Shown here piece after piece: positions 1,476 to 19,336 of a stretch of 64,000 nt of DNA. The notes under the pieces are model-generated. The model was given only the letters and a program-made list of their open reading frames with translations, was not told the origin of the DNA and ran no database searches. The stretch's first letter is position 1, and each line of letters opens with the position of its first letter. A program made the translations under genes and the position numbers. The stretch is from Escherichia coli (GTDB taxonomy: Bacteria; Pseudomonadota; Gammaproteobacteria; Enterobacterales; Enterobacteriaceae), in assembly GCF_003334335.1 (NCBI RefSeq), contig NZ_QOWQ01000012.1. One strand, given 5' to 3'.

Positions 1476-1505
1476 TTAACCATTCCCATACAATTAGTTA
1501 ACCAA

Positions 1506-1536
1506 AAAGGGGGGATTTTATCTCCCCTTTAATTTT
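1506..1536 (+). terminator. Putative rho-independent terminator after clpX
   Basis: GC-rich inverted repeat (aagggggga...tcccctt) followed by a T-run directly after the clpX stop. Confidence 0.4.
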
Positions 1537-1546
1537 TCCTCTATTC

Positions 1547-1582
1547 TCGGCGTTGAATGTGGGGGAAACATCCCCATATACT
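1547..1582 (+). promoter_or_regulatory. Putative sigma32 heat-shock promoter of lon
   Basis: TTGAA-containing -35-like element (about 1553-1557) and CCCCATAT -10-like element (about 1572-1580) upstream of lon; resembles the sigma32 consensus. Assigned by pattern only. Confidence 0.45.
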
Positions 1583-1662
1583 GACGTACATGTTAATAGA
1601 TGGCGTGAAGCACAGTCGTGTCATCTGATTACCTGGCGGAAATTAAACTAAGAGAGAGCTCT

Positions 1663-7626: not shown

Positions 7627-8322
7627 TTACCTCAACCCGGTTTTCTGCTTCATCGCTGCCATCACCGTCGGTTTATCGGCCAGATAATGATTCAAACCGT
7701 TGGCGCGTAAATTACATGCCGCACAATGACCGCAACCGTCGCCTTTAAAGCCGTTATAGCAGGTCAACGTTTCGTTACGGACTAAATCCAGTTTGCCGTA
7801 ATAATCTGCCAGCGCCCAGGTTTCCGCTTTATCAATCCACATCAGCGGCGTTTCAAAACGAATATCTTTCGCCATGCCCAAACTGACGGCATGGTTTAGT
7901 GCTTTCACAAACTCATCGCGGCAATCCGGGTAGCCGGAGAAATCCGTTTCGCAGACGCCAGTAATTACGGCTTCTGCTTTTACCTGATACGCATATATTG
8001 CCGCCAGCGTCAGGAACAAAATATTACGCCCTGGGACAAACGTATTCGGGATACCATCGGCTTCAGGTTCATAATCAGGCACCGGAATGCTGTCACGCGT
8101 CAGGCTACTGACCGCCAGCTCGTTGAGCAGGGTGACATCCAGCACCTTATGCGCGCGTGCCCCCAGTTTCAGCGCCAGTTCGCGTGCCACGTCGATTTCT
8201 GCGCGATGCCGCTGACCGTAATCGAACGTCACGCAATGGACTTCATCATATTGTTGTAATGCCTGCACCAGACAGGTGGTGGAATCCTGACCTCCACTGA
8301 ACACAACGACAGCACGTTTCAT
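7627..8322 (-). CDS. queC: 7-cyano-7-deazaguanine synthase (queuosine biosynthesis)
   Basis: 231-aa [21 protein letters not shown] (PP-loop ATPase SGGxDS) with C-terminal zinc-binding cysteines. Confidence 0.95.
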
Positions 8323-11645: not shown

Positions 11646-15192
<3,547 letters not shown>

Positions 15193-15235
15193 ATAGCGCA
15201 ATATTTCATCGTTGGTGCAAAAATGTAACGCACTG

Positions 15236-15252
15236 TGCACTGTCATAGTGCG
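15236..15252. promoter_or_regulatory. Possible NtrC (NRI) binding site upstream of glnK
   Basis: GCAC-N7-GTGC dyad (tgcactgtcatagtgcg) resembling the NtrC consensus TGCACC-N5-GGTGCA, about 55 bp upstream of the sigma54 element. Confidence 0.35.
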
Positions 15253-15304
15253 TTTTCATTTTCAAACTTCTTAACTTCCTGCTCTCTTTCTCGTTTTTCA
15301 TTTC

Positions 15305-15320
15305 TGGCACACCGCTTGCA
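15305..15320 (+). promoter_or_regulatory. Sigma54 (-24/-12) promoter of glnK-amtB
   Basis: TGGCAC-N5-TTGCA (tggcacaccgcttgca) with GG-N10-GC spacing, about 53 bp upstream of the glnK ATG. Confidence 0.65.
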
Positions 15321-15372
15321 ATACCTTCTTCGTGTAGCAGAACCATTACCGAATTCTGACCGGAGGGGATCT

Positions 15373-15711
15373 ATGAAGCTGGTGACCGTGATAATCAAAC
15401 CATTCAAGCTGGAAGACGTTCGTGAAGCGTTATCTTCCATTGGTATTCAGGGCCTGACCGTCACCGAAGTGAAAGGTTTCGGGCGTCAGAAAGGGCATGC
15501 CGAGCTGTACCGGGGGGCGGAATACAGCGTCAATTTCCTGCCAAAAGTAAAAATTGATGTGGCGATTGCTGATGACCAACTCGATGAAGTGATCGATATC
15601 GTCAGTAAGGCGGCTTACACCGGAAAAATTGGCGACGGCAAAATCTTCGTCGCTGAATTGCAACGCGTCATTCGTATTCGTACCGGCGAAGCCGACGAAG
15701 CGGCGCTGTAA
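15373..15711 (+). CDS. glnK: Nitrogen regulatory protein PII-2 (GlnK)
   Basis: 112-aa protein MKLVTVIIKPFKLEDVREALSSIGIQGLTVTEVKGFGRQKG from ATG 15373 after GGAGGGG SD; the ORF track's 46-codon upstream extension is rejected. Confidence 0.95.
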   Translation: MKLVTVIIKPFKLEDVREALSSIGIQGLTVTEVKGFGRQKGHAELYRGAEYSVNFLPKVKIDVAIADDQLDEVIDIVSKAAYTGKIGDGKIFVAELQRVIRIRTGEADEAAL

Positions 15712-15740
15712 TCTCTGGCACACAGCAACAGGAACGAAAA

Positions 15741-17027
15741 ATGAAGATAGCGACGATAAAAACTGGGCTTGCTTCACTGGCGATGCTTCCGGGACTGGTA
15801 ATGGCTGCACCTGCGGTGGCCGATAAAGCCGACAATGCGTTTATGATGATTTGTACTGCGCTGGTGCTGTTTATGACTATTCCGGGGATTGCCCTGTTTT
15901 ACGGTGGGTTGATTCGCGGCAAAAACGTGCTGTCGATGCTGACGCAGGTGACGGTGACATTTGCACTGGTCTGTATTCTCTGGGTGGTTTACGGTTACTC
16001 GCTGGCGTTTGGTGAGGGCAACAACTTCTTCGGCAACATTAACTGGTTGATGCTGAAAAACATCGAACTGACGGCGGTGATGGGCAGCATTTATCAGTAT
16101 ATCCACGTGGCGTTTCAGGGATCGTTTGCCTGCATTACCGTCGGCTTGATAGTTGGGGCGCTGGCGGAACGAATCCGCTTCTCAGCTGTGTTGATTTTCG
16201 TGGTGGTATGGCTGACGCTCTCTTACATTCCGATTGCGCATATGGTGTGGGGCGGTGGTTTGCTGGCTTCTCACGGTGCGCTGGATTTCGCGGGTGGCAC
16301 CGTGGTGCACATTAACGCCGCAATCGCCGGTCTGGTGGGCGCGTATCTGATAGGAAAACGCGTGGGCTTCGGTAAAGAGGCGTTTAAACCGCACAACCTG
16401 CCGATGGTCTTCACCGGGACTGCCATTCTCTATATCGGTTGGTTTGGCTTTAACGCCGGGTCAGCGGGCACGGCGAATGAAATCGCGGCACTGGCATTTG
16501 TGAATACTGTGGTCGCAACGGCGGCGGCAATTCTTGGCTGGATCTTCGGTGAATGGGCGCTGCGTGGTAAGCCTTCACTGCTGGGGGCGTGTTCTGGCGC
16601 GATTGCCGGTCTGGTCGGCGTGACGCCAGCCTGCGGCTACATTGGGGTTGGCGGCGCGTTGATTATCGGCGTGGTAGCTGGTCTGGCGGGCTTGTGGGGC
16701 GTTACCATGCTCAAACGCTTGCTGCGGGTGGATGATCCCTGCGATGTCTTCGGTGTGCACGGCGTTTGTGGCATTGTCGGCTGTATCATGACCGGGATTT
16801 TTGCCGCCAGCTCGCTGGGCGGCGTGGGCTTCGCTGAAGGTGTGACGATGGGCCATCAGTTGCTGGTACAGCTGGAAAGCATCGCCATTACGATCGTCTG
16901 GTCCGGTGTTGTGGCATTTATCGGCTACAAATTGGCGGATCTGACGGTTGGTCTGCGTGTACCGGAAGAGCAGGAGCGAGAAGGGCTGGATGTCAACAGC
17001 CACGGCGAGAATGCCTATAACGCGTAA
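15741..17027 (+). CDS. amtB: Ammonium transporter AmtB
   Basis: 428-aa ORF with signal peptide MKIATIKTGLASLAMLPGLVMA and multiple TM helices; 29 bp downstream of glnK. Confidence 0.96.
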   Translation: MKIATIKTGLASLAMLPGLVMAAPAVADKADNAFMMICTALVLFMTIPGIALFYGGLIRGKNVLSMLTQVTVTFALVCILWVVYGYSLAFGEGNNFFGNINWLMLKNIELTAVMGSIYQYIHVAFQGSFACITVGLIVGALAERIRFSAVLIFVVVWLTLSYIPIAHMVWGGGLLASHGALDFAGGTVVHINAAIAGLVGAYLIGKRVGFGKEAFKPHNLPMVFTGTAILYIGWFGFNAGSAGTANEIAALAFVNTVVATAAAILGWIFGEWALRGKPSLLGACSGAIAGLVGVTPACGYIGVGGALIIGVVAGLAGLWGVTMLKRLLRVDDPCDVFGVHGVCGIVGCIMTGIFAASSLGGVGFAEGVTMGHQLLVQLESIAITIVWSGVVAFIGYKLADLTVGLRVPEEQEREGLDVNSHGENAYNA

Positions 17028-17075
17028 CAAGCACTGCAAAAAACAGCCGGACGGTTTTCACCTCCGGCTATTTTT

Positions 17076-17936
17076 TTAATTGTGATTACGCATCACCCCT
17101 TCCTGAACGGTCGAGGCAACCAGTACGCCGTCTTGGGTATAAAACTCACCGCGCACAAAGCCACGTGCGCTGGACGCCGAGGTGCTCTCCACGCTATACA
17201 GCAGCCATTCATTCAAATTAAACGGGCGATGGAACCACATGGAATGGTCAATGGTGGCAATCTGAATCCCCGGTTCGAGAAAACCGATGCCGTGCGGCTG
17301 TAGAGCTACCGGCAGGAAGTTAAGATCAGAAGCGTAACCGAGCAGATACTGATGAACGCGCAGGTCATCCGGCACGCTACCATTTGCGCGGATCCACACC
17401 TGACGATGTGGTTCTGCGACGTGACCTTTCAGTGGGTTATGAAACTCCACCGGACGGACTTCCAGCGGACGATCGCAGATGAATTTATCTTTCAGCACTG
17501 GCGGCAGCAGGTGCGCCAGCGATTGGGCGATTTGCGTTTCCGAAGGTAGGCCATCAGGCGCTGGCGCGGACGGCATTGTTTTTTGATGTTCGAAACCCGC
17601 TTCTGGTGCCTGGAAAGAGGCAGTCATATAAAAAATCGGTTTGCCGTTTTGAATAGCAGCAACCCGGCGGGCGCTGAAGCTGTTACCGTCACGCAGCGTT
17701 TCGACATCATAAATAATCGGCTTCTTACTATCGCCAGGGCGAAGAAAGTAGCTGTGAAACGAATGTACCAGCCGCTCTTCAGGGACGGTCTCTTTTGCAG
17801 CATACAAGGCCTGACCCACGACCTGGCCGCCAAACACCTGGCGTAAACCTAAATCTTCACTCTGGCCGCGAAAGAGTCCTTCCTCAATTTTTTCCAGATT
17901 TAACAATGTCAGTAAATTTTTTAGCGCCTGACTCAT
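17076..17936 (-). CDS. tesB: Acyl-CoA thioesterase II
   Basis: Protein [24 protein letters not shown] from ATG at 17936 (286 aa); the ORF track starts 6 codons upstream. Confidence 0.93.
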
Positions 17937-19222: not shown

Positions 19223-19336
19223 GGGGGCTCTGTTGGTTCTCCCGCAACGCTACTCTGTTTACCAGGTCAGGTCCGGAAGGAAGCAGCCAAGGCAGATGAC
19301 GCGTGTGCCGGGATGTAGCTGGCAGGGCCCCCACCC
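19223..19336 (+). ncRNA. ffs: 4.5S RNA (signal recognition particle RNA)
   Basis: 114-nt stretch GGGGGCUCUGUUGGUUCUCCCGCAACGCUACUCUGUUUACCAGGUCAGGUCCGGAAGGAAGCAGCCAAGGCAGAUGACGCGUGUGCCGGGAUGUAGCUGGCAGGGCCCCCACCC, recognised as E. coli 4.5S RNA, in the atl-ybaA intergenic region. Confidence 0.95.

Follow-up and report, generated by a model that had tools for sequence, protein, structure and literature searches.

The window analysed here, a stretch of 64,000 nucleotides from Escherichia coli, carries the genes for a PII-family nitrogen regulator and an ammonium transporter directly downstream of an ABC transporter gene. According to the RefSeq annotation, the locus order is decR, mdlA, mdlB, glnK, amtB, the convergent gene tesB, ybaY, and ffs. 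A query of 701 bases covering positions 15100-15800 was recovered from 5424 of 5426 complete E. coli genomes with 95-100% identity and one copy per genome. Window positions are converted to U00096.2 coordinates by a constant offset (add 456449). With the same flanking genes, this constant coordinate offset, and an identical promoter 17-mer, the locus is the same system as glnKp of E. coli K-12 (b0450-b0451), from which it shows no difference of substance. The genes and the terminator that closes the operon are the following.

13411-15192, plus strand: mdlB, upstream co-directional ABC transporter gene that ends with a TGA at 15190-15192 (annotated in RefSeq at L001, the identical E. coli locus; also in the ORF list)
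15373-15711, plus strand: glnK, PII-family nitrogen regulator of 112 amino acids (RefSeq, NCBIfam NF007946)
15741-17027, plus strand: amtB, ammonium transporter of 428 amino acids (RefSeq, NCBIfam NF007947)
17039-17078, unstranded: bidirectional intrinsic terminator between amtB and convergent tesB, consisting of A6, the hairpin AGCCGGA..TCCGGCT, and T7

The GlnK protein scored 236.8 bits against the NCBIfam equivalog NF007946 (cut-off 181), whereas its 172.9 bits against the GlnB model remained under the cut-off of that model (202). AmtB reached 880.5 bits against the equivalog NF007947 (cut-off 657). A GlnK-type PII gene is thus followed, after a spacer of 29 nt, by an Amt transporter gene and by a terminator 3' of amtB, which is the layout of a GlnK/AmtB operon. 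The terminator fold has a z-score of -5.80, and none of 200 shuffled sequences was as stable. An Rfam search of positions 14500-17500 returned zero families at threshold; a Thr_leader match overlapping the amtB/tesB terminator region was dismissed as noise (28.8 bits compared to a gathering score of 55). The intergenic region between mdlB and glnK, which comprises 183 bp, differs by only 0-4 single-base changes among sampled E. coli contigs.

For comparison, a species-level genome collection was scanned independently of the promoter, with a degenerate pattern that covered nothing but the first 17 glnK codons. The matches listed are mostly from Pseudomonas and other non-enteric bacteria, and E. 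albertii (L017) is the only true enteric relative among them; a locus labelled Klebsiella (L109) carries a non-enteric glnK and was left out. A scan of metagenomes added four loci, two of which were informative, namely L135, which is Salmonella-like, and L133, a contig from a more distant enteric bacterium. Together with E. coli and E. albertii, these two constitute the enteric alignment.

The comparison bears on the start of glnK. In the program-made list of open reading frames, the gene begins with a GTG at 15235 and encodes 158 amino acids (15235-15711), exceeding the RefSeq protein by exactly 46 codons. A first-pass annotation of the window had warned that this frame over-extends glnK by 46 codons across the promoter, and the RefSeq start at 15373 bears this out. 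If the longer product were the real one, the sigma54 motif described below would lie within a coding region, and the reading frame is indeed open from 15235. However, RefSeq gives 112 amino acids, and the NCBIfam GlnK equivalog model spans residues 1-112 of the 112-amino-acid protein, so that its 112 positions are fully covered by 15373-15708. The upstream extension of 46 amino acids had zero protein-family matches in an NCBIfam search. In addition, the ATG at 15373 is preceded by a strong Shine-Dalgarno sequence:

15362-15368, plus strand: glnK Shine-Dalgarno sequence GGAGGGG, conserved in the enteric alignment and predicted to be mostly unpaired in the sigma54 transcript

In L135, the upstream frame is broken by in-frame stop codons a few codons 5' of the glnK ATG. 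The homologous ATG opens a protein of 112 amino acids in 112 of 121 related loci among the matches listed, and the remaining nine are shorter, either because the retrieved sequence breaks off or because of a premature stop codon (L016, 53 amino acids). The RefSeq annotation, the span of the equivalog model, and the stop codons in L135 rule out the 158-amino-acid frame as the true gene, and we regard its translation as extremely improbable. Calling the longest open reading frame therefore overruns glnK by 46 codons, across the gene's own promoter.

With the start of glnK placed at 15373, the promoter falls into the intergenic region.

15305-15320, plus strand: sigma54 -24/-12 promoter glnKp, TGGCACACCGCTTGCA, with GG at 15306-15307 and GC at 15318-15319, identical to published bound sites
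15331, plus strand: predicted transcription start (+1), resulting in a 5' UTR of 42 nt; placed by a fixed rule 19 bp 3' of the motif centre (PMC4591121)

The element TGGCACACCGCTTGCA agrees with TGGCAC-N5-TTGCW at 11 of 11 positions and is located on the sense strand, 53 nt 5' of the glnK ATG. No other sequence in the window matches TGGCAC-N5-TTGCA exactly, and the -24/-12 core of this element is invariant in all ten sampled E. coli contigs. When one mismatch is allowed, two matches are found compared to 2.0 expected; since this count is at chance and not significant, the case rests on position, strand, context, and evidence from outside the window. Such evidence is available from several genome-wide studies. 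In sigma54 ChIP-seq, peak OS03 was assigned the 17-mer CTGGCACACCGCTTGCA upstream of glnK with the motif centre at 471761, which corresponds to position 15312 of the window, and a FAT of 18 (Bonocora et al., PMC4591121). In a gSELEX study, the mdlB-glnK spacer was recovered by the RpoN holoenzyme alone, by NtrC alone, and by both, with the same 17-mer (Shimada et al., PMC8743547); the supplement of that study gives only the RpoN motif for glnK. Through identical sequence and coordinates, sigma54 occupancy of the promoter in the window is thus a published observation (PMC4591121, PMC8743547). The glnK promoter has also been listed among known sigma54 promoters, and expression was down 18.8-fold in an rpoN deletion (Zhao et al., PMC2831329). 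The first-pass annotation had placed a sigma54 element TGGCAC-N5-TTGCA at 15305-15320, which coincides exactly with the site bound in ChIP-seq. By a fixed rule, transcription of glnK is predicted to start at about 15331, approximately 12 nt 3' of the GC dinucleotide. The ChIP-seq study likewise gives a 'distance 42' from the predicted start to glnK, and records the promoter as 'predicted', not 'confirmed', in EcoCyc (PMC4591121). A consensus scan of positions 15000-17300 did not find a sigma70-like promoter. Between glnK and amtB, CTGGCACAC (15714-15722) was considered as a further promoter and rejected, as it lacks a -12 element and its TGGCAC is not kept in L135.

The response of the operon to nitrogen is equally well documented. 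NtrC ChIP-seq in nitrogen-starved cells revealed a 39.7-fold peak at 471741-471821, which corresponds to positions 15292-15372 of the window, and glnK mRNA, an NtrC-dependent marker, could not readily be detected when glnG was deleted (Brown et al., PMC4066584). Upon ammonium starvation, the NtrC-specific activity at the glnK promoter rose 400-fold, and the promoter was described as depending exclusively on NtrC phosphorylation (Schumacher et al., PMC3870243). The same paper relays the proposal that glnKp, a simpler promoter, is activated only once NtrC exceeds a threshold (PMC3870243). A lack of nitrogen-dependent induction had been named beforehand as an observation that would speak against the proposed operon; the 400-fold activation is the opposite outcome. 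With the orthologous promoter of Salmonella, TGGCACATCCTTTGCAAT, a lacZ fusion went from 1.1 Miller units when nitrogen was plentiful to 1778 when it was limiting (PMC3844500). Published experiments thus demonstrate sigma54 occupancy, intergenic NtrC occupancy, dependence on rpoN and glnG, and nitrogen induction, which makes the nitrogen-regulated sigma54 operon established knowledge. The proposal of a nitrogen-regulated glnK-amtB operon, which had been made from the sequence, is supported by RefSeq, by the NCBIfam equivalogs, and by the published dependence on NtrC and rpoN and induction by nitrogen limitation. We conclude that the feature is almost certainly glnKp, the single sigma54-dependent, NtrC-activated promoter of the E. 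coli glnK-amtB operon. As glnKp is already known in detail, the earlier reading is correct but ordinary.

The position of the NtrC enhancer is less evident. NtrC sites are 17-bp palindromic boxes, usually in tandem and about 80-150 bp upstream of the start, and were scored at 14 positions against the consensus TGCACCAnnnTGGTGCA (PMC8743547). Two candidate boxes lie upstream of glnKp.

15236-15252, unstranded: NtrC-like box B, TGCACTGTCATAGTGCG, 10/14, centred at -87, containing the dyad GCAC-N7-GTGC at 15237-15251
15216-15232, unstranded: NtrC-like box A, TGCAAAAATGTAACGCA, 9/14, centred at -107 from the predicted start, a putative assignment

The dyad ends 53 bp short of the promoter, with about 62 bp between its centre and the GG of the -24 element. 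The dyad that the first-pass annotation had likened to an NtrC enhancer site, about 55 bp upstream of the promoter, is therefore present at nearly that distance, but its match to the consensus is at chance level. Boxes of at least 10/14 were found 35 times in the window compared to 31 expected, and TGCAC-N7-GTGCA with one mismatch was found four times compared to 3.8 expected. It follows that the NtrC reading is not supported by sequence statistics alone; a match to the consensus carries no statistical weight by itself, and the evidence lies in conservation and context. The scan of the intergenic region detected no better box than box B. Within mdlB, a box of 11/14 (15034-15050) was rejected as probably a by-product of the coding sequence for an ABC-transporter motif; a similar box is present at 57830-57846.

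Box A is identical in E. albertii and lacks full-box conservation in L135. Box B, in the form xGCAC-N7-GTGCG, is kept in E. albertii, in L135 (12/14), and in L133, and together with the T-run that follows it is the best-conserved block of the spacer across the four enteric lineages, outside the promoter and the ribosome-binding region. This conservation of the dyad in orthologues is confounded by a terminator reading of the same block, which is discussed below. Boxes A and B are 20 bp apart, compared to the 32 bp typical of distant glnK loci (among the matches listed). The NtrC ChIP-seq interval has its midpoint at the promoter itself, about 88 bp 3' of box B, and its resolution is too low to pick a box. 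Conservation and position point to this particular dyad as the probable NtrC site, and the bases contacted by NtrC at glnKp are putative.

We therefore considered glnK promoters beyond the enteric bacteria. A sense-strand -24/-12 element of at least 8/11 was present in the 300 nt upstream of 82 of 105 glnK loci (among the matches listed), compared to 12-16 of 105 in antisense, coding, and shuffled controls. Elements of at least 10/11 preceded 26 glnK loci among the matches listed, as opposed to 0-1 in controls. Among loci with a strong promoter, 36 of 37 of those listed carry an NtrC box of at least 10/14 between -246 and -56, while the controls gave 5 of 35 (coding) and 2 of 37 (shuffles). 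At distant loci in this list, the boxes are regularly placed, at about -96/-128 or -109/-141, and are 32 bp apart as at glnAp2. A homologue of amtB is located 3' of glnK in 67 of 94 loci (among the matches listed), and the sigma54 promoter is also found in E. albertii, L135, and L133. The surveyed loci are phylogenetically related, many of them from Pseudomonas, so that these counts do not represent independent events. In this comparison of sequences, the arrangement of NtrC boxes, sigma54 promoter, and glnK-amtB nevertheless appears clearly ancestral and widespread. With 36 of 37 distant glnK promoters among the matches listed carrying an NtrC box, some enhancer is to be expected at E. coli glnKp.

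Box B overlaps a second element.

15227-15263, plus strand: terminator-like element for mdlAB, with an 11-bp stem (15227-15237 and 15244-15254) and a 6-nt loop, followed by TTTTCATTTTC

The hairpin at 15227-15254 has a z-score of -3.84 (0 of 200 shuffles as stable), starts 35 nt after the mdlB stop codon, and precedes the T-run UUUUCAUUUUC. A GC-rich hairpin with a U-tract on the sense strand, 3' of a stop codon, has the sequence features of an intrinsic terminator. Both hairpin and T-run are kept in the four enteric lineages, with dG values of -9.6 to -15.8 kcal/mol, and the distance from the element to the promoter varies over these lineages (-87, -87, -117, and -142). The NtrC boxes at distant glnK loci among the matches listed lack a T-run, which suggests that the T-run is specific to the enteric arrangement with mdlB directly upstream and co-directional. 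We propose, tentatively and at somewhat below an even chance, that 15227-15263 has a double function in enteric bacteria: its RNA may be the intrinsic terminator of mdlAB, and its DNA palindrome may be the NtrC enhancer of the next operon. Of the readings considered for this element, the double function is the most likely.

Each of the two functions could also stand alone. The dyad at 15227-15254 might be only the mdlAB terminator, with NtrC binding elsewhere or acting from solution or through weak non-specific contacts. This would account for the strength of the hairpin, in which the 11-bp stem leads into the T-run, for the conservation of hairpin and T-run 35-79 nt after the mdlB stop codon in four lineages that differ in the distance to the promoter, and for the fact that all four copies end in GCG followed by Ts, where the consensus has an A at box position 17. 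The chance-level box score and the centring of the ChIP-seq interval on the promoter rather than on the dyad point in the same direction. Yet the distant glnK promoters listed carry their NtrC box in the same upstream zone in 36 of 37 cases, box B is the best candidate with an orthologous box of 12/14 in L135, the intergenic region contains no better one, and the literature describes natural tandem NtrC sites among the promoters studied, glnKp included; we thus consider a terminator without enhancer function unlikely. Conversely, the dyad might be only the NtrC enhancer, so that the hairpin is a by-product of a palindromic site and mdlAB ends elsewhere or by Rho. NtrC boxes are palindromic and all fold to some degree, they are the rule at similar distances from glnK promoters (among the matches listed), and the mdlB 3' end was not found in the Term-seq supplement searched. 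The last point may merely reflect low expression of mdlAB, and glnK is absent from that supplement, too. In contrast to a simple by-product, the stem in E. coli draws on a second GCAC copy further upstream and, at a length of 11 bp, reaches beyond the 17-bp box. Moreover, at least four Ts follow on the mdlB-sense side in four of four enteric lineages and after none of the NtrC boxes at distant loci among the matches listed. An enhancer without terminator function therefore seems rather improbable to us. The proposed dual role of the element was not found in the literature searched, although it may already stand in footprinting papers; this overlap of an enhancer with the terminator of the upstream operon may be the only point that is, modestly, new.

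A further feature of glnKp concerns RNA that reads through from upstream. It involves two CT-rich segments.

15282-15293, plus strand: distal block rich in C and T, CTCTCTTTCTCG, immediately 5' of the -24 element; described for glnKp as its distal CT-rich region (bioRxiv 10.1101/086108)
15324-15331, plus strand: proximal CT-rich anti-Shine-Dalgarno segment, CCTTCTTC, upstream of or at the start site, present only in read-through RNA

It has been reported that glnKp silences a downstream gene in synthetic constructs when it is transcribed from upstream, that this silencing is independent of rpoN and involves pairing of CT-rich segments with the Shine-Dalgarno sequence, and that the critical segment is a 7-nt CT-rich stretch centred at -4 (Levy et al., bioRxiv 10.1101/086108). 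Among the CT-rich insulators in sigma54 promoters described in that work, glnKp is the founding example. In RNA beginning at 15255, we found that CUUCUUC (15325-15331) is predicted to pair with GGAGGGG (15362-15368) with a probability of 0.98-1.0, while in RNA beginning at 15331 five of the seven Shine-Dalgarno bases are predicted to be paired at only 0.05-0.15. In silico, a CT-rich segment upstream of the start thus pairs with the Shine-Dalgarno sequence only in read-through RNA, as expected of such an insulator. Over the region as a whole, shuffled sequences fold no less stably (z = 0.35). The distal block, with a conserved (C/T)CTCG, is kept in the four enteric lineages. The published tests were made on synthetic constructs, in which the ribosome-binding site was foreign and a reporter replaced glnK; the pairing in the native context described here is a prediction. 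Taken together, the hairpin with its T-run and the anti-Shine-Dalgarno pairing would shield glnK twice from the upstream operon.

These elements can be combined into a working model. RNA polymerase with sigma54 would wait as a closed complex on TGGCAC-N5-TTGCA (15305-15320). Once ammonium is exhausted, NtrB would phosphorylate NtrC, and NtrC-P may assemble on the weak candidate boxes B (15236-15252) and A (15216-15232), whose distances from the start are about 87 and 107 bp, loop to glnKp, and open the promoter using ATP. Transcription from about 15331 would then yield a glnK-amtB mRNA ending at the bidirectional terminator at 17039-17078. The hairpin embedded in box B, together with its T-run, most likely also terminates transcription of mdlAB, and in RNA that reads through, the CT-rich stretch at 15325-15331 would pair with the Shine-Dalgarno sequence of glnK.

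The glnAp2 promoter of E. coli is the textbook NtrC/sigma54 promoter. It shares with glnKp the -24/-12 promoter, the looping of NtrC-P from upstream palindromic boxes, and the same regulon and signal. Unlike glnKp, glnAp2 has additional governor sites and overlaps with a sigma70 promoter, glnAp1; glnKp, in turn, lacks a sigma70-like promoter, and its two boxes, at about -87 and -107, are weak. The boxes of glnAp2 are strong and centred at -108 and -140 (PMC1865078). A closer relative is the glnK-amtB promoter of Salmonella Typhimurium (STM0462), which occupies the orthologous position after mdlB, is sigma54-dependent, and is induced approximately 1600-fold (PMC3844500). Its sequence, TGGCACATCCTTTGCAAT, is the one found in L135. 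In contrast to E. coli, L135 possesses a single NtrC box, which is stronger (12/14) and lies at -117; an additional GC-rich hairpin separates this box from the promoter, and the leader comprises 53 nt.

As glnKp is a textbook sigma54 promoter that serves as a standard reporter for the activity of NtrC, its recovery carries little weight as a discovery; it does illustrate that a true sigma54 promoter is recognisable from sequence alone. The possible implications lie in the region upstream of it. If the dual role of 15227-15263 is true, terminator strength and enhancer affinity would be evolutionarily coupled, and this coupling could explain the weakness of the glnK enhancer, with its G instead of A at box position 17 and its stem closed by GCG. 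Overall, the terminator overlap and the insulator suggest that an operon which is either off or on in response to nitrogen starvation is shielded from a co-directional neighbour only about 180 bp away.

Besides the glnK promoter, a scan of the whole window for the sigma54 consensus yielded a single further near-match, and the first bases of the glnK promoter motif occur once more further downstream:

56080-56096, + strand: CTGGCACTGGTTTTGCT, sigma54-like site
15714-15722, + strand: CTGGCACAC, identical to the first bases of the glnK promoter motif, located in the 29 nt between glnK and amtB

By the offset used for the glnK promoter, the centre of CTGGCACTGGTTTTGCT corresponds to position 512537 of U00096.2 and coincides with IS02, an intragenic sigma54 ChIP-seq site within ybaT, upstream of cueR (PMC4591121). 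The recurrence of CTGGCACAC is most likely due to chance. A -12 element is absent next to it, and comparison with the Salmonella-like locus L135 showed that its TGGCAC is missing there.

NtrC-consensus-like boxes were likewise found elsewhere in the window (matches out of 14 consensus positions):

15034-15050, + strand: GACACCATTCTGGTGCT, 11/14, in the 3' coding region of mdlB, ~-289 from the glnK start
57830-57846, + strand: GACACCATTTTGGTGGC, 10/14

Since the bases of GACACCATTCTGGTGCT encode the ABC-transporter motif D-T-I-L-V-L, this box is probably a coding by-product.

In the distant glnK loci listed (L002-L121), NtrC boxes lie at very regular distances from the predicted start: many gammaproteobacterial MAGs have them at ~-96 and ~-128, Pseudomonas and Stutzerimonas at ~-109 and ~-141, and the spacing between the two boxes is always ~32 bp. 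In contrast, the NtrC-like boxes of E. coli glnK, at -87 and -107, are 20 bp apart. Between NtrC box and promoter (~8085-8112, + strand coordinates), L135 additionally carries a GC-rich inverted repeat of 8 bp, GGCGCGTC-aatataaa-GACGCGCC, which the E. coli glnK spacer lacks; its AT-rich loop might represent a bending or IHF-type site, or the repeat a second hairpin.

The glnK of L109 is of non-enteric type (MKLVTAIIKPFKLDDVRAALSEIGVSG...) although the label of this MAG is Klebsiella pneumoniae, and its contig is therefore probably mis-binned. On the E. coli-like contig L134, the glnK reading frame is intact only up to residue 83; the break points to a frameshift or to an error of assembly.

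Downstream of the operon and elsewhere in the window, the following elements were identified:

17039-17078, both directions: bidirectional intrinsic terminator (A6, hairpin, T7; z = -5.80) between the convergent amtB and tesB
1496-1591 (-), 19231-19327 (+), 36131-36195 (+), 44222-44299, 49979-50062 (+), 51360-51538: Rfam matches at gathering score

A sub-threshold Rfam match to Thr_leader (17037-17123, - strand) overlaps the terminator region. The families matched at gathering score are sraA, the small SRP RNA (ffs), the dnaX frameshift element, sroB, and naRNA4 (n = 3), the last being of REP/BIME type; all are expected in this region of the chromosome of E. coli.

The glnK leader directly before the ATG had no Rfam family match:

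15346-15369, + strand: ATTACCGAATTCTGACCGGAGGGGATC, conserved glnK leader

It is kept in the four enteric lineages, where conservation reaches well past the Shine-Dalgarno sequence. Pseudomonas-type glnK promoters of the loci listed lie ~150-250 nt before the ATG, most of them at ~175-195 nt, which implies long leaders.
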